From contig JAIUPC010000023.1 in assembly GCA_020161655.1 (NCBI GenBank), positions 16,231 through 80,230 on the forward strand: DNA of 64,000 bases, read 5' to 3'. This DNA is from Pseudomonadota bacterium (GTDB lineage: Bacteria > Pseudomonadota > Alphaproteobacteria > Rhodobacterales > Rhodobacteraceae). The position numbers and the translations under genes are program-made. Positions within the stretch are counted from its first letter, which is position 1. Every line of letters starts with the position of its first letter. Under the pieces are notes generated by a model that saw only the letters and a program-made list of their open reading frames with translations, was not told where the DNA came from and did not search any database. Positions 10,133-51,404 of this stretch are shown piece by piece.

Positions 10133-11155
10133 ATGGCCTTGCGTGATGATCGGGTGACGATGGCCCATGGCGGAGGCGGCACCGCCATGCGCGACCTCAT
10201 CGAAGAGGTCTTCGCCGCCGTCTTCCGCCCCGAGGGGATGGAGGATCAGGCCCGGCTTTCCGAGGCGGCGCTGGCCGAACCCGGCGCGCGTCTGGCCTTC
10301 ACCACCGACAGTTTCGTGGTCACGCCCTTGGAGTTTCCCGGTGGCGATATCGGCAAGATCGCCGTTTGCGGCACGGTGAACGATTTGGTTGTCGGCGGGG
10401 CGCGGCCCCTGTGGCTCTCGGCGGCCTTCATCATCGAGGAAGGCTGCGAGATTGCACTTCTGCGGCGCATTGCCCAGTCGATGCAGGCCGAGGCGGCGAA
10501 GGCCGGGGTCAGGATCGTCACCGGCGACACCAAGGTCGTCGAGCGCGGCAAGGGCGACGGCGTCTTTGTCACCACGGCGGGGGTCGGCGTGATTCCGGCA
10601 GGCTGCGACATCGGCGCGCATCGGATCAGGCCGGGCGATGTGGTGATCGTGAACGGACCACTTGGCAATCATGGCGCCGCGATCCTTGCCGCCCGAGGCG
10701 ATCTCGCGCTGACGGTCACGGTGCCCTCGGACTGCGCCGGACTTGGGCATCTGATGGCGGCGGTGCTTGATGCGGCCCCCTCTATGGCGGCGGCGCGGGA
10801 TGCGACGCGGGGCGGCATCGCCTCAGCGCTGAACGAGCTGGCCGGGGCCGCAGGCGTCGGCGTCATGATCGAGGAGGAGGCGTTGCCGCTGCACCCCGAA
10901 GTGCGGGGGCTGTGCGAGATTCTCGGGCTAGACCCCCTCTACCTCGCCAATGAAGGCACGCTTGTCGCCTTCGTTCCCGAGGCGGAGGCTGAGGCGGCGC
11001 TGGCGGCGATGCGCGCCTGTCCGGAGGGCGAGGGCGCCACGATCATCGGCCGCGCCAGCGCCGCCCATCCGGGCCGGGTGGCGATGCGGACCCTCTTCGG
11101 CGGGACGCGGATCGTCGACATGCTGGTCGGCGAACAACTGCCGCGCATCTGCTAG
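10133..11155 (+). CDS. hypE: Hydrogenase maturation carbamoyl dehydratase HypE
   Basis: 340 aa with an AIR-synthase-like fold (MAHGGGG...). The conserved C-terminus ends in PRIC. Confidence 0.94.
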   Translation: MALRDDRVTMAHGGGGTAMRDLIEEVFAAVFRPEGMEDQARLSEAALAEPGARLAFTTDSFVVTPLEFPGGDIGKIAVCGTVNDLVVGGARPLWLSAAFIIEEGCEIALLRRIAQSMQAEAAKAGVRIVTGDTKVVERGKGDGVFVTTAGVGVIPAGCDIGAHRIRPGDVVIVNGPLGNHGAAILAARGDLALTVTVPSDCAGLGHLMAAVLDAAPSMAAARDATRGGIASALNELAGAAGVGVMIEEEALPLHPEVRGLCEILGLDPLYLANEGTLVAFVPEAEAEAALAAMRACPEGEGATIIGRASAAHPGRVAMRTLFGGTRIVDMLVGEQLPRIC

Positions 11156-11167
11156 GCTGCGAGCTTG

Positions 11168-11893
11168 TCAGGCGGTGCTGCCGCCATCCACCGTCAGGAT
11201 CGTTCCGGTGATCCGCGCGGCCTCAGGGCCAAGGAGATAGGCGACCGCGCCGGCGGCATCTTCGGGCAGAGCGAGTCCCAGCGGCGCGCGGCGGCGGATC
11301 GATTCCAGCTTGTGCCCGTCAAGGCTGCTGGTCATCTCCGTTTCCATATAGCCCGGCGCCACGCAATTGACGGTAATGCCGCGCTTGCCAAGCTCGCGCG
11401 AAAGCGACCGCGTCATGCCTTCAAGGCCGGCCTTCGACGCGGCATAGGCCGCAAGACCGTGGAACCCGGTCGAGGCGATGATCGAGGAAATGCTGACGAT
11501 CCGCCCCTCACGCTTGGCGAGCATCCCGCGCGAGGCGTATTTGATGAGAACGAGAGGTGCCATCAGGTTGACCGTCAGCACCTTCTGGATGTCGGTCTGG
11601 TGCATCGTTGCCAGCACGCCGTCCATGCCGATGGCGGCGTTGTTCACGAGCCCCCAAAGCGTGCCGTGCCGGTCGACCACATCGCCGACAAGGCCGGGGA
11701 TGCTGTCGATCTCACCAAGGTCGCTCTGCACGAATTCCGCCCGGCCCTTGCTCTCTTCGACAAGCGCGCCGTATTCGTCGCTGAGGGTCCGGCTGGTCCC
11801 GACCACCCGATAAGCCTCGGCATCATCCAACAGACGCCGGGCCGTGGCGAGCCCGAGACCGCGCGAAACCCCCGTCACAAGAACCGTCTTCAT
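11168..11893 (-). CDS. Short-chain dehydrogenase/reductase (FabG-like 3-oxoacyl-ACP reductase)
   Basis: 241 aa with TGVSRGLGLA Rossmann motif, NNAA, and catalytic YxxxK (YAASKAG). Confidence 0.85.
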   Translation of the reverse strand: MKTVLVTGVSRGLGLATARRLLDDAEAYRVVGTSRTLSDEYGALVEESKGRAEFVQSDLGEIDSIPGLVGDVVDRHGTLWGLVNNAAIGMDGVLATMHQTDIQKVLTVNLMAPLVLIKYASRGMLAKREGRIVSISSIIASTGFHGLAAYAASKAGLEGMTRSLSRELGKRGITVNCVAPGYMETEMTSSLDGHKLESIRRRAPLGLALPEDAAGAVAYLLGPEAARITGTILTVDGGSTA

Positions 11894-38499: not shown

Positions 38500-38823
38500 T
38501 CAAATCTTCGGCTTCTCGCCGGGCTTCGTCGTGAAAAGATCGGCCCATTCGGGGTGCTTTTCGTACTGGCCCCGGACATAGGGACAGATCGGGATGATGC
38601 GGAAATGGTTGGCGCGGGCGTCGTCGAGCATGAAGTTCAGGAGCTTTCCCGCCACGCCCTTCCCCGCCATCGTTTCCGGCACGCCGGTGTGATCGGCGCT
38701 GATGATCCCCTCGCCCCGCCGGGTGAAGGTGATCTCGCCCTCGCCGTCGATGCCCTCGATCCGGGCGACATAGCGGCCATGCCGGGCGTCGCGGTCTTGC
38801 TTGGCGATGGTAAGGTCTGACAT
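38500..38823 (-). CDS. Small GNAT-like N-acetyltransferase-domain protein (YjdJ-like)
   Basis: 107 aa from MSDLTIAKQD. Has a MAGKGVAGKLL acetyl-CoA-loop-like motif and ICPYV near the C-terminus. The upstream part of the 247-aa track ORF is rejected. Confidence 0.6.
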   Translation of the reverse strand: MSDLTIAKQDRDARHGRYVARIEGIDGEGEITFTRRGEGIISADHTGVPETMAGKGVAGKLLNFMLDDARANHFRIIPICPYVRGQYEKHPEWADLFTTKPGEKPKI

Positions 38824-39032
38824 CTCTTCCCTCTCTTTCAACCTCATCCGCGGGGCTGACTCGCAGCCCGTCTTGGCCAACAGGATTGCATCTGGGAATG
38901 TTCCGCGCGAGTACCGATTTTCTGATCCGGCGTTCTCTTTTCCAGAACACTTCGGGCATTGCCGTGCGGCGTGGCGCGCCCCATCTTTCTGGCAAGCGGG
39001 GCGATCAGGCCCCATCCGAAACGGAGGATGAG

Positions 39033-39893
39033 ATGAGAAAGGTTCTTTCCGGCGGCAACGCACCCCAGGGCCATTGGGTCGGCGACGGTTTTCCCGTCCG
39101 CTCGCTCTTTTCCCATATGGGCGGCGCGAACGAGAACACGCCCTTCCTGATGCTCGACTATGCCGGGCCTGAGGAGTTTCAGCCCACGACCAGGCCGCGC
39201 GGTGTCGGCGTCCACCCCCACAAGGGGTTCGAGACGGTGACAATCGTCTACCAGGGCGAGGTTGAGCATGGCGATTCCACTGGCCGGGGCGGCGTGATCC
39301 GCGAAGGCGATGTGCAGTGGATGACGGCGGCGAAGGGCATCCTGCACAAGGAGTTCCACAGCGACGATTTCACCCGCAAGGGCGGCATGCTTGAGATGGT
39401 GCAGCTTTGGGTCAACCTCCCCGCTGCCGACAAGTCGGCTGAAGCCGGCTATCAGGCAATCACCGATGCCGACATTCCTTCGGTCGATCTCGCGGAGGGC
39501 GCGGGGCGGGTCCGGGTGATTGCCGGCAGCTTCGGCGGCAAGGCAGGACCCGCGCGGACTTTCACGGCGATGGAGGTCTGGGATACACGGCTCAAGGCCG
39601 GCAAGACCGTGCATTTTGCGCCGGAAGAGGGTCACAACGTCATCGTCGTGGTGCTTGACGGCAAGGTCACGCTGAACGGCAGCCACCGCCTAGAAGGCGC
39701 GGCCCAGGCCCGACTGTCGCGCGACGGTGGCGGCTTCACGGTCGAGGCCGAAACGGACGCGAAGCTCCTGATCCTCGCCGGTGCGCCGATCGACGAGCCG
39801 GTGGCCGCCTACGGGCCTTTCGTGATGAACACCGAAGCCGAAATCCGGCAGGCGATCACCGACTTCAATTCGGGGTGCTTCGGCCAGCTTTGA
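39033..39893 (+). CDS. Pirin-family protein
   Basis: 286 aa from MRKVLSGG, with cupin motif GVGVHPHKGFETVTIVYQGEVEH. Confidence 0.85.
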   Translation: MRKVLSGGNAPQGHWVGDGFPVRSLFSHMGGANENTPFLMLDYAGPEEFQPTTRPRGVGVHPHKGFETVTIVYQGEVEHGDSTGRGGVIREGDVQWMTAAKGILHKEFHSDDFTRKGGMLEMVQLWVNLPAADKSAEAGYQAITDADIPSVDLAEGAGRVRVIAGSFGGKAGPARTFTAMEVWDTRLKAGKTVHFAPEEGHNVIVVVLDGKVTLNGSHRLEGAAQARLSRDGGGFTVEAETDAKLLILAGAPIDEPVAAYGPFVMNTEAEIRQAITDFNSGCFGQL

Positions 39894-39911
39894 GGCTTCG
39901 CCGACCATCAG

Positions 39912-39944
39912 AAAACCGGGCGGCAGTCAGCCGCCCGGTTTTTT
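39912..39944. terminator. Bidirectional rho-independent terminator between convergent genes
   Basis: AAAA-CCGGGCGGC-agtca-GCCGCCCGG-TTTTTT: a perfect 9-bp stem with A-tract and T-tract flanks. Confidence 0.75.
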
Positions 39945-39963
39945 CAGCCTCGCCCCCTGCCCT

Positions 39964-41481
39964 TCAGGCCAGCCAGTCCTTGGCGGCCTGAAGGTCTTCG
40001 GTGCCAAGCTCATGCCCGGCGCTGAGCATTTTCGCCGTCACCTCGGCGCCCCCTGCCCGCAGCGCCTTTTCCAGCGCCGGGGCCATGTGGCCATAGGGAT
40101 CGCGGGCGCCGTTCAGCATCAGGACGCGAGCGCCCGCCACATTGGTCGCCGGTATCGTCTCAAGCACCTGGATGCCGCGGAGCAGGATCGCGCTTCGCAC
40201 CGTTCCGGGGTGCAGTTCAAGGATCGCGCCCAAGAGGTTCGCGCCGTTGGAATAGCCAAGGAAGGTCATCCGCGCGGGGTCGAGCCCGTAGCCGGTGATT
40301 GCGCCTTCGACGAAGCCCACGAAGGCCTCCGCTTCGCCCCGGATATCTTCCTGATCGTAGGTCACGGCGTCGAAGCGGCGGAACCAGCGGTTGATACCCT
40401 CCTCGGTCGACCTTCCGCGCACGCCCAGAAGCGTCGCCCTCGGATTGATCCGGGCGGCCAGCGGCATCAGGTCGGATTCGTTGCCGCCGGTGCCGTGGAG
40501 AAGCACGATAACGCTTCCGTCGGGATCGGCGGGGGTGTGAAAGCGGTGGGTGAAAGGCAGGTCACGCATCGGCATCCTTTCCTCGCCCGGCAGGGCGAAT
40601 TGCGGCAGGATCAGGCGCAGATCCTCGGCGCGGTTGTGGTCATGGGGCGGAATAAACAGTGTCTGCCCCATCTGATCCGCGGCTTCATCCACGGTAAAAC
40701 CGGGGGCGTCGGTCGCGTATTCGAAGAGCGTCCCGGCAGGTTCGCGGACATAGAGCGACAGGAAATACTTCCGGTCGTGGACATTGGTGATGTCCGCTGC
40801 ATCGCGAAGGTCAAGCCGCATCCGGCGGACGGCATCGGCATCCGCGGCGCGGAAGGCGACATGGTCGAAGACGCCAGTGCCGGGAATGCCGGGGAAGTAG
40901 CCGCCGGCATCGCGGATGTCGATCACGTCGCTGTCGGAGATCATGCGCAGGGTCGAGCCCTCGCGCAGTCCGGCACGGTAGCCGAAGCGGGCGGCGAAGG
41001 CTGCGGTTTCCTCCGGCTGTTCAGTCAGGATGGTGACCGACCGGATGCGCGTCGGCGCGATCGGATCGGGCAGCGGCGCTGCGGCGGGCATGTCCGTGCC
41101 CACCAGCTTGACGATGATCCCGTCCGGGTCCTTCAGGCGCAGCACCGTCTCGCCCATCTCGCGCTTCGGCCCCTCGACCGGCACCCTTGCGGCGAGCGCG
41201 CGGGTCAGCCAGTCGCCGATGCTGCCGGGCGGCACCGCAAAGGCGATCTCGGAGACCTGGACAAGCCCTGCCCGCCCCGGAGAGCCGCTTTCCCAGACAA
41301 GGAAGGTGACGACGGAACCGGGCGAGCCCAGCGCATCGCCGTAAAAGAGGTGCAACTGCTCGGCATCCTCGTATCCGCCAGTCTGCTTGACCAGCTTCAG
41401 GCCGAGAAAGCCCGCGTAGAAATCGACATTGGCCTGCACCCGACGGGTGATGCCGGTGACATGATGGATGCCGGTCGTCAC
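39964..41481 (-). CDS. Fusion protein: VOC/glyoxalase-type ring-cleaving dioxygenase (two modules) + phospholipase/carboxylesterase-type alpha/beta hydrolase
   Basis: GTG 41481 is preceded by AAGGAG. The N-terminal part starts TTGIHHVTGI... with a second VOC module (FDHVAFRA). The C-terminal roughly 200 aa carry VLLHGTGGNE and nucleophile elbow GYSNG. Confidence 0.78.
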   Translation of the reverse strand: MTTGIHHVTGITRRVQANVDFYAGFLGLKLVKQTGGYEDAEQLHLFYGDALGSPGSVVTFLVWESGSPGRAGLVQVSEIAFAVPPGSIGDWLTRALAARVPVEGPKREMGETVLRLKDPDGIIVKLVGTDMPAAAPLPDPIAPTRIRSVTILTEQPEETAAFAARFGYRAGLREGSTLRMISDSDVIDIRDAGGYFPGIPGTGVFDHVAFRAADADAVRRMRLDLRDAADITNVHDRKYFLSLYVREPAGTLFEYATDAPGFTVDEAADQMGQTLFIPPHDHNRAEDLRLILPQFALPGEERMPMRDLPFTHRFHTPADPDGSVIVLLHGTGGNESDLMPLAARINPRATLLGVRGRSTEEGINRWFRRFDAVTYDQEDIRGEAEAFVGFVEGAITGYGLDPARMTFLGYSNGANLLGAILELHPGTVRSAILLRGIQVLETIPATNVAGARVLMLNGARDPYGHMAPALEKALRAGGAEVTAKMLSAGHELGTEDLQAAKDWLA

Positions 41482-41640
41482 GATGCACTCCTTTGCCTTG
41501 TCCGGTTCCAAGATGGGGCAGGCGCGATGCGGCAACAGACCCATCATGGCAAACCCCGCGTTCGCGGCGGGCGAACAGGCTCCCTGTTTCATCTCATGGC
41601 GTCAAGGCGTAGGCTTTCCAGACCTAGTGAGGAGTCGACC

Positions 41641-42573
41641 ATGAGCTGGAACCCCGCCCTTGACCCCGGCTGCCCGGATGAAATCGGTGTCGACGCGATC
41701 GAGACCCTTATCATCCCGCGCGCCCGCGACCTTGGCGATTTCGAGGTGCGCCGCGCGCTGCCCTCGCCGAAGCGGCAGATGGTCGGGCCCTTCATTTTCT
41801 TCGATCAGGCCGGACCGGCCGAGTTCCTGACCGGACAAGACGTCGATGTGCGGCCGCATCCACATATCGGGCTTGGCACCGTGACCTATCTTTACCGGGG
41901 CGATTTCCACCATCGCGACAGCATCGGCTCGGACCACATCATCACGCCCGGCGCCTTGAACTGGATGGTCGCCGGCAAGGGCGTTTCCCATTCCGAGCGC
42001 ACCAGCTCCACCGCGCGCAAGGGGCCGCACAGCCTTTACGGCATCCAGACCTGGATCGCGCTGCCGGAAGAGTGTGAGGATATGGACCCGATCTTTGAGC
42101 ATCACGGCAAGGACGCGCTGCCGGAGATCGAGGCTGAGGGCATCAACGCAAGGCTGATCCTCGGCAATGCCTACGGCGAGAAAGCCCCGGCGACGCTTTA
42201 TTCGGAAACCTTCTATCTCGACGTGACGCTGGCGCCCGGTGCGCGGTTTCCACTGCCCGACGATCATGAGGACCGCGGGCTTTACATCACCGAAGGCAGC
42301 GTCAGCATCGCCGGCCAAAGCTTCGAGGCGATGCAGATGATGGTGTTCCGGCACGGCGACAAGATCACCGTTGCCGCCGGGCCGCAGGGGGCGCGGCTGA
42401 TGGCGCTTGGCGGGGCGACGCTGAACGGGCCGCGCTATGTCTGGTGGAATTTCGTCGCCTCGTCGAAGGACCGGATCGAACAGGCCAAGATCGACTGGCG
42501 CGCAGCCGACTGGGGACAGGGGCTTTTCGACCTGCCGGTGGGCGACCGGCGGGAGTTCATCCCCCTGCCCTGA
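41641..42573 (+). CDS. Pirin-family protein
   Basis: 310 aa from MSWNPALDPG, with cupin motif DVDVRPHPHIGLGTVTYLYRGDFHHRDS. The 853-aa track ORF is antisense read-through upstream of this start. Confidence 0.85.
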   Translation: MSWNPALDPGCPDEIGVDAIETLIIPRARDLGDFEVRRALPSPKRQMVGPFIFFDQAGPAEFLTGQDVDVRPHPHIGLGTVTYLYRGDFHHRDSIGSDHIITPGALNWMVAGKGVSHSERTSSTARKGPHSLYGIQTWIALPEECEDMDPIFEHHGKDALPEIEAEGINARLILGNAYGEKAPATLYSETFYLDVTLAPGARFPLPDDHEDRGLYITEGSVSIAGQSFEAMQMMVFRHGDKITVAAGPQGARLMALGGATLNGPRYVWWNFVASSKDRIEQAKIDWRAADWGQGLFDLPVGDRREFIPLP

Positions 42574-43870: not shown

Positions 43871-44706
43871 TCGCCGAGAATGGCGGCGCGCGTCGCGTCA
43901 TCGACCTCGGGCCGGATGCCGAACCAGCGTTCGAAGGCGGGCGCTGCCTGGTGCAGGAGCATCCCGAGTCCGTCGACGGTGACGCAGCCATTTGCCGCCG
44001 CCTCATCGAGGAACTTTGTCCTGAGCGGGGTATAGACGAGGTCGCTGACGACAGCCCTTGGCGAGAGCGCGTCGAGCGGCACCCGGAACTCCGGCTTGCC
44101 CTCCATCCCGAGGGAGGAGGTGTTCACCACCGTGGTCGCGCCATCAAGCATGTTGCCGGCCTGAACCCAGTCGCTGACCACGACCTTGGCGCCAAACTCG
44201 GCGCGCAGCGCCTCGGCCCGCGCCCGGGTCCGGTTGGCAAGGCGGATCTCGGGCGCGCCGACCTCGATCAGCGAGGCGATGACGGCCCGCGCGGCACCAC
44301 CGGCACCGATCACCGCCGCCGGACCGGCTTCGGGAGTCCAGCTCGGCGCGTTCTGCCGAAGATTGGCGATGAAGCCATAACCATCGGTATTGTCGGCATG
44401 AAGCCGGCCATCCTTGCGGAAGATGAGCGTGTTGGCCGCCCCGATCAGCGCCGCGCGGTCGGTCACCACATCGGCGAGCGCCAGCACGGTTTCCTTGTGC
44501 GGGATGGTGACATTGCAGCCGACGAACCCGGCCTTGGGCAGCGCGGCGATCACCGCCTTGAGGTCAGCCTGGGCTACATCCATCGGCACGTAATGGCCAC
44601 GTATGCCATAGGTCTTCAGCCAATGGTGATGCAGTTTCGGCGATTTCGAATGCGCCACGGGCGAGCCGATGACGCCGGCGAGGGGAATGCGGGGATGGTC
44701 GGTCAT
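43867..44706 (-). CDS. aroE: Shikimate dehydrogenase
   Basis: 279 aa with [20 protein letters not shown] and GAGGAARA motifs. Confidence 0.9.
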
Positions 44707-45314
44707 GCGGCGATGTCGCCCCGAATGGAGAGCCAGGTCAAGAGTTCGATCAGGGGCAGGCCGAGAATGGTGAAGTAATCCCCCTCGATGCGCGAAAAAA
44801 GGCGCACGCCCTCGGATTCAAGCTGATAGGAACCCACGCTGGCGCCGATTTCAGGCCAGTTCCGGGCGAGGTAAGCGTCGAGATAGCCAGGCGAAAACTC
44901 CCGCATGGTCAGCCGCGCGATGCCGACATGACGCCAGAGCGGTTCGCCATTCTCGACGACAACCGCCGCCGAGAGGAGGCGGTGGGTCTTGCCGCGCAAG
45001 CCCAGAAGCTGCGCCCGCGCTGCCGCTTCGTTGTCCGGTTTGCTCAGAACCCGGCCATCGAGGTCAAGCACCTGATCGCAGCCGATGACCAGCGCACCGG
45101 GGTTCTTCTCGGAGACCTTGCGCGCCTTCATCTCGGCGAGCGTATCGGCCACATCGCGCGGGCCTGCACCTTCGGCTTCAAGCGCGGCGCGGATCGCCTC
45201 TTCATCGACGCGGGGCAGGACGGTTTCGCAGGCGAGACCGGCGTTCCTGAGAAGCGTCGCCCGGATTTCGGAGCCGGAGGCGAGGACAATGCGGCGGGTC
45301 TCTGGAGGGGTCAT
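44703..45314 (-). CDS. maf: Maf-family nucleoside triphosphate pyrophosphatase
   Basis: 203 aa from [16 protein letters not shown] used the internal Met at 45314 because homologues start near the LASxS motif. The track ORF extends to 45413 into the putative origin. Confidence 0.82.
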
Positions 45315-45319
45315 GTGGG

Positions 45320-45710
45320 CCACGCTGTGGAAAAGGACGCCTGTGCTCTGAGGGCGCGGGGGTGTGTAACTCCGGGTCTGGGACTGGTTGGGGAAAACCG
45401 GGGGTGTTGTCAATCAACCCGGCACCGGTCGCCCCCATGTGGAACGCGCTTCAGCCGGCATGTGGAAGATCGGTATCTCCACAGGGCGGGGGGTTCGTGG
45501 CACGGTATCCGTCCCAGCTACATCTTCGCAATATATTGAAATATATACGAATCTCAAGGCGGAGGGACGTCACGCCCGGTTATCCAGACCTTTTCCACAG
45601 AGTCGTTCCGCTGTGGGTTTCTTGCCCGGAACCGGCGATATCCACGCCATCCACAGCCTCTAAATCAACCACATCCCTTTTCTTTCTATTTCTTGATTCA
45701 TTAGAAGGCA
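45320..45710. other. Candidate chromosomal replication origin (oriC): DnaA-box cluster plus AT-rich unwinding tract
   Basis: At least nine 9-mers within 1-2 mismatches of TTATCCACA on both strands: 45326, 45438, 45461, 45475, 45580, 45591, 45612, 45638, 45647. AT-rich tract at 45529-45552. Flanking gene orientation is divergent, and parS and parAB lie nearby. Confidence 0.65.
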
Positions 45711-45737
45711 GATGAAACCGAAAGGGATGGCAAAGCG

Positions 45738-46190
45738 ATGATCACGGATTTTCTGGCTTCCGCCTATCCCTGGACCAAGGCTCTGCACATCATATCCATC
45801 GTGGCCTGGATGGCGGGGGTCTTCTACCTGCCGCGGCTTTTCGTCTATCACGTCGAAAAGGTGGAGCCGGGAAGCGAGACCGACAGGCTTTTTCAGCTGA
45901 TGGAGCGGCGGCTTCTGAGGGCGATCATGAATCCGGCGATGACGGCGGCCTGGGTCTTTGGCCTTTGCCTTGTCTTCACGCCGGGGATCGTCGACTGGTC
46001 GATGCTCTGGCCCTGGACCAAGGCGGCGGCGGTGATCGGCATGACCTGGTTTCATCACTGGCTCGGATACCGGCGGAAGGATTTCGTCGCCGGCAGCAAC
46101 GAGGTCAGCGGCCGCACCTACCGGATCATGAACGAAGTGCCGACCGTGCTTCTGGTCGTGATTGTCTTCTCCGTGATCCTGAAATTCTGA
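45738..46190 (+). CDS. hemJ: Protoporphyrinogen IX oxidase HemJ (UPF0093/CopD-like membrane protein)
   Basis: 150 aa with 4 TM helices. N-terminus [27 protein letters not shown] is typical of HemJ. Confidence 0.8.
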
Positions 46191-47580: not shown

Positions 47581-47610
47581 CTTGTTGTTATAAAACAATA
47601 GGTTACAAGG

Positions 47611-48910: not shown

Positions 48911-48926
48911 TGTTTCACGTGAAACA
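48911..48926. promoter_or_regulatory. parS centromere-like site (perfect palindrome TGTTTCACGTGAAACA)
   Basis: Exact 16-bp palindrome matching the conserved ParB-binding consensus tGTTtCAcGTGAAAcA. Spans the mnmE-mnmG junction and the mnmG start codon. Confidence 0.85.
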
Positions 48927-50784: not shown

Positions 50785-51404
50785 CGACGGATAACCGCGG
50801 TCTCGCCGGCCTCGATGTTTCACGTGAAACATTTGAGCGGCTGGAGGTCTACGAAGCACTCCTTGCCAAATGGAACCCGGCGATCAACCTCGTCGCGAAA
50901 GGCACGCTTGGCGAGGCCTGGAGCCGTCACTTCATTGATTCCGCTCAGGTTTTATCGCTCGCCCCGCCCGAGGCCCGGATCTGGCTCGATGTCGGTTCGG
51001 GTGGCGGTTTCCCCGGAATGGTCGTCGCGATCATCGCGGCGGAGCTGCGCCCCGACCTTTCTATAACCCTGGTCGATAGCGACCTGCGCAAATCAGCGTT
51101 CCTGGGTGAGGTCGCGCGCAACACCGGCGTGGCGGTCACAATCAACGCCGTTCGGGCCGAAGAGCTTCCCCCCGCCAACGCCGATGTGATGACCGCCCGC
51201 GCCTTCGCGCCGCTGACAACGCTCCTCTCCCTCGCCTCCCGCCACCTCAACCCGCAGGGCAGGGGCATCTTCCTCAAGGGCGCGCGGCATGAGGCCGAGG
51301 TTTCCGACGCGCTTGAATCCTTCCGGTTTGACCTTCAGAAGGTTCCGAGCCAGACCGACCCGCAGGCGGTCATCCTTTCCGTCGGAGGAATCACGCGTGT
51401 CTGA
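50781..51404 (+). CDS. rsmG: 16S rRNA (guanine527-N7)-methyltransferase RsmG (GidB)
   Basis: 207 aa with [12 protein letters not shown] and the SAM motif [15 protein letters not shown] overlap with mnmG. Confidence 0.9.
50816..50831. promoter_or_regulatory. parS centromere-like site (second perfect copy, inside rsmG codons 12-17)
   Basis: Exact TGTTTCACGTGAAACA, read in frame as D-V-S-R-E-T-F. Confidence 0.85.

Follow-up and report, generated by a model that had tools for sequence, protein, structure and literature searches.

The maf-hemJ intergenic gap of an uncultured Paracoccaceae bacterium as a candidate DnaA-dependent chromosomal replication origin

The stretch of DNA analysed here (64 kb, referred to as the window) comes from an uncultured bacterium of the Paracoccaceae (Rhodobacterales) and contains a non-coding gap between the divergently oriented genes maf and hemJ (Table 1). 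The minus-strand genes dnaQ, coaE, aroE and maf are found on the left side of this gap, while the plus-strand genes hemJ, rho, mnmE, mnmG, rsmG, parA and parB are found on the right side, followed by hemW on the minus strand. These NCBIfam assignments agree with the original prediction, which was made from the nucleotide sequence and placed a candidate chromosomal replication origin (oriC) between four minus-strand and seven plus-strand genes. The gap is predicted, with a probability of approximately 0.85, to be the DnaA-dependent chromosomal oriC of this organism, a function deduced from its sequence and conservation.

The neighbourhood provides the indicator genes and partition context of an oriC: maf, mnmG (gidA), rsmG (gidB), parAB and two perfect parS sites (TGTTTCACGTGAAACA; two matches in the window vs. 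0.06 expected) all lie within 7 kb. The parS sites are 3.2 and 5.1 kb from the gap and parAB is approximately 6 kb away, in keeping with the 3-7 kb originally given for these elements. Both parS palindromes are located within coding sequence rather than in intergenic DNA, one in mnmG (start 48910) and one approximately 35 nt into rsmG (start 50781). Six metagenome assemblies, obtained independently for this organism (which an exact-protein look-up finds in assemblies of at most 34 kb), have no gene called in 45315-45737. The possibility that the gap is coding was rejected: its longest open reading frame (ORF; 45362-45715) has no family match and other gene callers call none. An Rfam scan of the gap returned nothing at E ≤ 1 and a tRNA scan of the gap returned nothing. 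As it separates two divergent operons, the gap must also carry the promoters of maf and of hemJ-rho.

The gap is densely packed with sequences resembling the DnaA box TTATCCACA, which were counted on both strands at up to two mismatches. Each of the nine 9-mers in the original prediction is present at its assigned position. Seven of these are indeed within one or two mismatches of the reference, but 45438-45446 and 45612-45620 have three mismatches each. Two further sites with no more than two mismatches had not been listed (45389-45397, TTTTCCCCA, minus strand; 45665-45673, TCAACCACA, plus strand), and the total therefore remains at nine boxes, three of which have at most one mismatch. The whole window contains 89 and 7 boxes at these two thresholds, respectively. 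Because the gap is less G+C-rich (56%) than the window (approximately 65%), the null model consisted of 2000 dinucleotide-preserving shuffles of the gap sequence itself. The shuffles contain a mean of 0.97 boxes, and none of the 2000 reaches nine boxes, three near-perfect boxes or six TCCACA cores. This core hexamer, whose density had been proposed as a point on which the origin reading could fail, occurs six times in the gap (0.26 expected). As the densest other 420-bp stretch in the window contains only three boxes, the cluster stands above both the genomic and the compositional background.

The same arrangement is found throughout the family. A HemJ-based scan with one genome per species recovered 80 related loci (each with up to 10 kb on either side), all from Paracoccaceae or other Rhodobacterales, including Albidovulum/Defluviimonas, Frigidibacter, Tabrizicola, Rhodobacter, Gemmobacter, Roseovarius and Nioella. 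The order dnaQ-coaE-aroE-maf / gap / hemJ-rho-mnmE-mnmG-rsmG-parA-parB is present in 79/79 loci that include both flanks, with gaps of 340-475 bp. Each related gap is enriched in boxes (3-11 vs. 0.25-1.1 expected from its own locus), the sum over all gaps being 512 compared with 86.9 in shuffles of the same sequences. Among the 67 loci that measure 15 kb or more, 59 have no other 420-bp stretch as rich in boxes as the gap. An unbiased ranking of k-mers across the gaps put the 8-mers TCCACAGG (60/80 gaps vs. 1.35 expected), ATCCACAG and TATCCACA at the top, followed by ATCATCAT and TTTCTTTCT, and the sequence logo drawn around CCACA gives the canonical DnaA box, TTATCCACAG. Position and orientation are kept across the family not only for the boxes, but also for a site of IHF type, a 3-nt repeat and a T-rich tract. 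Compared with the nearest relative (L014), the gap has an overall identity of 89.6%, with 92-98% in the box-bearing parts and 96-98% in the right-hand module. At the third codon positions of maf, aroE, hemJ, rho and mnmE, these two organisms share only 69-84% identity. Since the non-coding gap is more conserved than the third codon positions of its flanking genes, it is under purifying selection. In two loci (L041 and L074, from Rhodobacter calidifons and one Tabrizicola metagenome-assembled genome), the start of rho is displaced from hemJ by approximately 890 bp more than in the remaining 77 loci (at approximately 10450-11460), and these loci therefore have an extra insert or gene between hemJ and rho.

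Published whole-replicon analyses place the origins of related bacteria in a similar setting. In 101 closed Rhodobacteraceae genomes, oriC lies at the GC-disparity minimum and at a local GC minimum beside parAB (Kopejtka et al. 2019, PMC6699656), and in a second survey parAB is near the origin in almost all alphaproteobacterial genomes (PMC8116508). Both agree with the original expectation of an origin near parAB. The Dinoroseobacter shibae oriC was placed between dnaA and parA by cumulative skew (PMC5786225), and maf, gidA and hemE serve as indicator genes in Ori-Finder (PMC3794950). The only box cluster near parAB in the window is the maf-hemJ gap. Circumstantially, the distances to the end of the closed chromosome records are similar: 92.5 kb for the corresponding gap of Tabrizicola sp. 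M-4 (NZ_CP128606.1, 3,978,200-3,978,600) and 90.2 kb for the curated oriC of the related Gemmobacter sp. HYN0069 (3,604,341). Other curated oriC coordinates in PMC6699656 are 3,633,477 for D. shibae, 4,481,877 for Defluviimonas alba cai42 and 188,444 for Jannaschia sp. CCS1. The origin reading is thus supported by a box cluster that is unique in the window, by conservation of its position and orientation in approximately 80 genomes, by identical synteny, by sequence constraint and by the adjoining parS sites and parAB.

Table 1. Coordinates of the candidate origin, its boundary genes and associated sequence elements in the window. Mismatches of boxes are relative to TTATCCACA.
Feature	Position	Strand	Remarks
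Candidate oriC (non-coding gap, maf start to hemJ start)	45315..45737	.	423 bp
maf (left boundary)	44703..45314	-	Last of dnaQ-coaE-aroE-maf; NCBIfam Maf-like protein, E = 1.8e-67
hemJ (right boundary)	45738..46190	+	First of hemJ-rho-mnmE-mnmG-rsmG-parA-parB; TIGR00701 HemJ, 138.4 bits (cut-off 138.05)
DnaA box TTTTCCACA	45326..45334	-	1 mismatch; 12 nt from maf start
Weak box TTTTCCCCA	45389..45397	-	2 mismatches; over expected -10 position of leftward promoter
TTGACA, perfect sigma-70 -35 hexamer toward maf	45408..45413	-	Sequence reading
Degenerate box CGTTCCACA	45438..45446	-	3 mismatches
DnaA box TCTTCCACA	45461..45469	-	2 mismatches; TGTGGA conserved in alignment
DnaA box ATCTCCACA	45475..45483	+	2 mismatches; faces box 45461; retained in closest relatives only
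IHF-type site TTTCAATATATTG	45529..45541	-	1 mismatch to WATCAANNNNTTR; within central AT-rich tract
Sigma-70-like promoter match TTGAGA-16-TATATT, leftward	45530..45557	-	Consensus scan, 10/12 positions; overlaps IHF-type site
DnaA box TTATCCAGA	45580..45588	+	1 mismatch; weakly conserved (Tt.tccc)
DnaA box TTTTCCACA	45591..45599	+	1 mismatch; alignment consensus TT.TcCaCAg
Degenerate box AAACCCACA	45612..45620	-	3 mismatches
Two abutting DnaA boxes ATATCCACG + CCATCCACA	45638..45655	+	2 mismatches each; toward hemJ
3-nt periodic tract CTAAATCAACCACATCCC	45659..45676	+	CCTACATCATCATCATC in most relatives; includes box-like TCAACCACA at 45665-45673
T-rich tract CTTTTCTTTCTATTTCTTGATTCATTA, candidate DNA unwinding element	45677..45703	+	Third least stable 26-mer
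parS TGTTTCACGTGAAACA, perfect, 16 bp	48911..48926	.	5' end of mnmG
parS TGTTTCACGTGAAACA, perfect, 16 bp	50816..50831	.	Near 5' end of rsmG

The boxes are organized in a left array (45326-45469), mostly in minus orientation, and a right array (45580-45655), mostly in plus orientation. At the maf end, TGTGGA is present within 45 nt of the maf start in 33/80 gaps (1.6 expected), and boxes 45326 and 45591 form an inverted repeat of 15 nt that is 93% complementary. The weak box at 45389 falls in the conserved alignment block TGGGGAAA, with GGG[GAC]AA there in 27/80 gaps vs. 4.9 expected. TGTCAA is found 60-140 nt from maf in half of the gaps (40/80 vs. 1.0 expected), and the corresponding TTGACA hexamer probably serves the maf-operon promoter as its -35 element, as judged from its sequence; it was not called by the promoter consensus scan of the gap. 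The core of the degenerate box at 45438 is a conserved alignment column (TGTG[GC]A; 40/80 gaps vs. 3.5 expected) and the box is a member of the direct-repeat family GCCnnCATGTGGAA. Repeats of the form GCCnnC(A/T)TGTGGAA, which consist of a DnaA-box core with a common 5' extension, are located at 45319, 45431 and 45454 in the left half of the gap (45312-45467). This arrangement suggests either that box units were duplicated locally or that the recognition sequence is longer than the box. A variable stretch separates the left boxes from the AT-rich tract in the family alignment. In the right array, [CG]CACA is present at the position of box 45591 in 50/80 gaps (7.4 expected) and TGTGG at that of box 45612 in 49/80 gaps (5.0 expected). 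The two abutting boxes at 45638-45655 are the best-conserved element of the gap, with the family consensus (A/T)ATCC(C/A)C..T.TCCACAGG.

Two tracts of low stability lie beside the boxes, as would be expected of an unwinding element. The central AT-rich tract (45530-45555) and the T-rich tract near hemJ (45678-45703) rank second and third, respectively, among the least stable 26-mers of the window, which bears out the attention that the original prediction gave to both (45529-45552 for the former). The fifth least stable site is an AT-rich 26-mer in the rho/mnmE intergenic region (47581-47606) that contains a short palindrome, TTGTTATAAAACAA. The central tract includes the IHF-type site. Exact matches to the IHF consensus WATCAANNNNTTR are found in 14/80 gaps (0.75 expected), and matches with up to one mismatch in 60/80 gaps (18.8 expected). 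In the relatives, 52 of these matches are fixed in position, on the minus strand and 176-225 nt before hemJ, and IHF is therefore predicted to bind at 45529-45541 on the basis of the conserved consensus. The promoter consensus scan identified a single site in the gap (45530-45557; 0.3 in shuffles), and this leftward match is possibly an alternative or additional reading of the same AT-rich tract. Because the conserved letters of the central tract are those of the IHF-type site, and possibly those of a leftward promoter -10 element, this tract is probably not the unwinding element, which refines the original prediction. The T-rich tract is the likelier unwinding site, since it is directly downstream of two boxes in the same orientation, with the 3-nt repeat between this box pair and the tract.

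This right-hand module resembles a basal unwinding system (BUS), in which a DnaA box is followed by DnaA-trios. The published BUS rule allows a box with up to two mismatches, a spacer of 0-16 bp and at least three NAN triplets (PMC8287927). They are counted in the 3'-5' direction along the complement of TTATCCACA, a strand convention confirmed by the supplement of the same paper. The window itself fits this rule, with six triplets lying 3 bp beyond box 45665-45673 on the correct strand and side: the lower strand of 45677-45694 reads 3'-GAA AAG AAA GAT AAA GAA-5', which fits [G/A]A[T/A]. Runs of at least five triplets under this rule occur in 34/80 real gaps compared with 4/400 shuffles, and the best candidate is the hemJ-proximal plus-strand site in 47/80 gaps. 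A T-rich run is present at this hemJ-proximal position in 77/80 gaps. The 3-nt repeat is visible in the alignment as a C conserved with period 3 at +13, +16, +19, +22 and +25 from the box. CATCATC occurs in 55/80 gaps (4.7 expected), and CA[TA]CA[TA] or CAACCA occurs at the repeat position in 75/80 gaps (8.4 expected). In this organism and its nearest kin the repeat is degenerate (CTAAATCAACCACATCC). The CAT repeat, which is on the box strand in most relatives, gives complementary-strand triplets of 3'-TAG-5' when the frame is set with A in the centre, and of 3'-GTA-5' when it is set by the conserved G. The tract at 45659-45676 may therefore provide DnaA-trio-like single-strand binding sites; it is termed trio-like, rather than a proven trio array, because the repeat is not 3'-GAT-5' and its best-conserved base is C instead of the central A.

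Initiation at the maf-hemJ gap might proceed through the following steps. DnaA would bind to the better boxes at 45326, 45580 and 45591, and the weaker boxes would be filled cooperatively to form the left and right arrays. IHF would bend the DNA at its conserved site between the two arrays. A DnaA oligomer that starts from the two abutting boxes (45638-45655) could then extend onto the A-rich lower strand of 45659-45703 and open it. Helicase would be loaded at the opened tract and forks would depart in both directions. Finally, the new origins would be segregated by ParB, acting from the parS sites at a distance of 3-5 kb.

The gap shares a number of properties with the oriC regions predicted for Rhodobacteraceae/Paracoccaceae with Ori-Finder and DoriC (Kopejtka et al. 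2019, PMC6699656). These also have a DnaA-box cluster and a local GC minimum, lie near parAB and far from dnaA, and have maf and gidA as indicator genes. However, they were published as coordinates alone, and an internal layout with an IHF-type site, tandem boxes, CAT repeat and T-rich tract is not described in the papers examined. A HemJ homologue search aimed at closed genomes did not recover the species for which oriC coordinates are published. The BUS calls for five Rhodobacterales in the PMC8287927 supplement are other short sequences with just three trios each. Attempts to match these sequences to the gap were unconvincing, and the one entry with a resemblance to the box pair at 45591-45620 is that of P. 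denitrificans (TTTTCCACAGCTTGTGGGCTG). In the literature examined, no experimentally defined chromosomal origin was found for the Rhodobacterales.

Caulobacter crescentus Cori is likewise an alphaproteobacterial origin located away from dnaA, with a length of approximately 400 bp, weak DnaA boxes, one IHF site and an AT-rich region. It lies in the same wider neighbourhood, flanked by parAB-gidAB-rho and, on the opposite side, by maf-aroE-coaE-dnaQ. The maf-hemJ gap has the same single IHF-type site among weak DnaA boxes (one mismatch, at a position fixed in 52 relatives). Cori is bounded by hemE and CC0001 (COG1806/DUF299) (PMC1914354), whereas the boundaries here are maf and hemJ and no hemE/URO-D or DUF299 gene is among the called genes within 10 kb on either side. 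Cori contains five CtrA sites (TTAA-N7-TTAA), in contrast to none in the whole window even when one mismatch is allowed; the absence of such sites had been noted in the original prediction. There are three GANTC methylation sites in the gap of this organism, and such sites are neither conserved nor enriched in relatives (0.98 per gap vs. 1.55 shuffled). With the Cori boundary genes absent within 10 kb and no CtrA sites, the gap is not a Caulobacter-type Cori in the strict sense.

Likeness to the Bacillus subtilis BUS (DnaA-box 6/7 and DnaA-trios), which is read from sequence, lies in two boxes of the same orientation, a short G+C-rich spacer, 3-nt repeats and an AT-rich tract. In addition, the purine-rich strand, with A central in each triplet, is the strand complementary to TTATCCACA. 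In contrast to B. subtilis, the box strand here carries CAT rather than a 3'-GAT-5' repeat being present, the best-conserved base is C rather than the central A, the repeat is degenerate in the window, the origin is away from dnaA and an IHF-type site is added. Similarities to the Escherichia coli oriC are a DnaA box adjoining the unwinding element, box groups separated by an IHF site, left and right arrays that oppose each other and the lack of linkage to dnaA. The E. coli origin differs in that, with the orientation of the adjacent box as reference, its unwinding element has the T-rich sequence on the other strand (as derived from the known E. coli sequence), and the gap has neither 13-mers nor GATC clustering. 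A locus of the datA/DARS type would be a DnaA-box cluster with an IHF site but no unwinding element, dispensable and away from the copy-number peak; the gap has boxes and an IHF-type site, and a conserved destabilized tract adjoins its tandem boxes.

Several observations weigh against the assignment of the gap as oriC. The raw cumulative GC skew minimum of the window is near 36-38 kb, not at the gap. In a regression of third-position GC skew over the window genes, gene orientation has an effect of -0.108 ± 0.014, while the effect of the side of the gap (-0.004 ± 0.014) indicates no switch there. Of the 43 genes called further left than dnaQ, 32 have plus orientation (11 minus), head-on to a leftward fork. 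In the relatives (L001-L080), the motif GGGNAGGG strongly favours the plus strand to the left of the gap (97 vs. 28) as well as to the right (130 vs. 17). No perfect DnaA box is present in the gap or in the 64-kb window. The origin call for this organism is made at the scale of a 64-kb window, and the comparison with the published Ori-Finder origins of Rhodobacteraceae is at the level of the parAB neighbourhood rather than of the individual intergenic gap. Finally, a cluster of DnaA boxes with an IHF site also describes non-origin loci such as E. coli datA and DARS2.

The strand-divergence argument of the original prediction accordingly holds in part. It is correct for the four genes immediately to the left, but it is weakened beyond dnaQ because the left 37 kb is mostly plus-strand, with no skew switch at the gap. 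This left region (1-37729) is a long accessory block oriented head-on to a fork from the proposed origin. It encodes the cytochrome b561 of a Ni-hydrogenase, HupH, HypD and an HypE-like protein (hydrogenase maturation), a 4Fe-4S protein, a pyrroloquinoline quinone (PQQ)-dependent dehydrogenase cluster, an ABC transporter ATPase and an aldehyde dehydrogenase. Because it is accessory DNA, skew within the window is judged uninformative at the 64-kb scale; accessory DNA is reported to be more frequent near oriC in this family (PMC6699656), which the left 37 kb fits. Coding strands in the window are C-rich by approximately 0.11 at third codon positions, with no replication-side component detectable over 64 kb. 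When the same regression is pooled over the 80 loci, a side effect in the expected direction is obtained (+0.036 ± 0.005), but this estimate, which shared genes as well as noisy ORF calls confound, was set aside as support; it is not seen for the outer genes of the pooled loci. In the window, GGGNAGGG diverges around the gap, with five minus-strand copies at 38.6-42.6 kb and four plus-strand copies vs. one minus-strand copy on the right. Plus-strand matches in relatives include sites within the minus-strand genes maf and aroE and recur at homologous positions. This E. coli-type orienting motif was rejected as a test, being plus-biased on both sides, tied to homologous positions and not validated for the group.

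Two side features to the left of dnaQ may be mentioned here. The least stable DNA of the window is at 1792-1886 (TTTTATATTTACTTATCAATAGACTA and its neighbour), between the cytochrome b561 gene and the next ORF of the hydrogenase cluster, and could be a promoter/operator region or an insertion junction. Between the accessory block and dnaQ (38814-42573), two pirin-family genes flank a 542-aa minus-strand ORF (39964-41592) that has a carboxylesterase-like C-terminal region and a weak glyoxalase match. An overlapping 853-aa plus-strand ORF, obtained mechanically (40012-42573), has no family match and is probably spurious.

Of the other explanations for the gap, the one that survives best, although it is unlikely, is a DnaA-binding regulatory locus with the true oriC elsewhere, for example by dnaA. 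Such a locus could be datA- or DARS-like, titrating or recycling DnaA with the aid of IHF, or could consist of DnaA-controlled divergent promoters of maf and hemJ-rho. A DnaA-box cluster with one IHF site is the established make-up of E. coli datA and DARS2 (DARS2 is cited in PMC13643167). Promoters are also required in the gap, where a conserved TTGACA toward maf and the sigma-70-like match at 45557-45530 are found, and the missing skew switch is consistent with this explanation. However, a titration site needs neither the conserved 3-nt repeat nor the destabilized T-rich tract, both of which are present on the correct side and strand of tandem boxes. A regulatory locus would not be expected beside parS in every genome, and whole-replicon analyses of the family place the origin by parAB rather than by dnaA. 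Box density and conservation over approximately 80 genomes likewise exceed what the operator of a single promoter needs.

It is quite improbable that the gap is a former origin in decay, or one member of a pair of origin-like loci, retained for its promoters and for DnaA-dependent regulation. Dual predicted oriCs have been proposed in another family (bioRxiv 10.1101/2025.08.05.668638), and both the lack of a perfect box in the window and the degenerate repeat in this organism and its closest relatives (CAACCACATC in place of CATCATCATC) could be taken as signs of decay. Against this, the whole architecture is constrained, with the right-hand module 96-98% identical to that of the nearest relative, and all of its elements are kept across the family. 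Weak boxes are, moreover, normal in alphaproteobacterial origins such as Cori. A chance cluster of TCCACA-like words, which the lower G+C content of the gap would favour, has a negligible probability, as it is refuted both by the 2000 shuffles and by the recurrence of the same words at the same positions in approximately 80 genomes.

As a DnaA-dependent oriC, the maf-hemJ gap is an expected feature in an expected neighbourhood and does not overturn the current understanding of bacterial origins. The part that might be new is limited to the family-wide architecture, chiefly the CAT repeat between the tandem boxes and the T-rich tract. It is suggested tentatively, and with more doubt than confidence, that origins of the Paracoccaceae and the roseobacter group share a fixed unwinding module so far undescribed in alphaproteobacteria, comprising two abutting DnaA boxes (..ATCCnC..nTCCACAGG), GCC, (CAT)4-5 and a T-rich tract, with an IHF site approximately 100 bp upstream and without control by CtrA. 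Should the CAT repeat prove to be a form of the DnaA-trio specific to this lineage, then the basal unwinding system of Bacillus would extend to origins away from dnaA, and the trio sequence itself would be able to drift. The family-wide alignment provides a testable map for the Rhodobacterales, with conserved boxes, a probable IHF position, and the strand and tract expected to open. For this organism, which is represented by metagenomes alone, a located oriC would give the orientation of its replichores, allow growth rates to be estimated from peak-to-trough read coverage, and offer a fragment to try in shuttle vectors.

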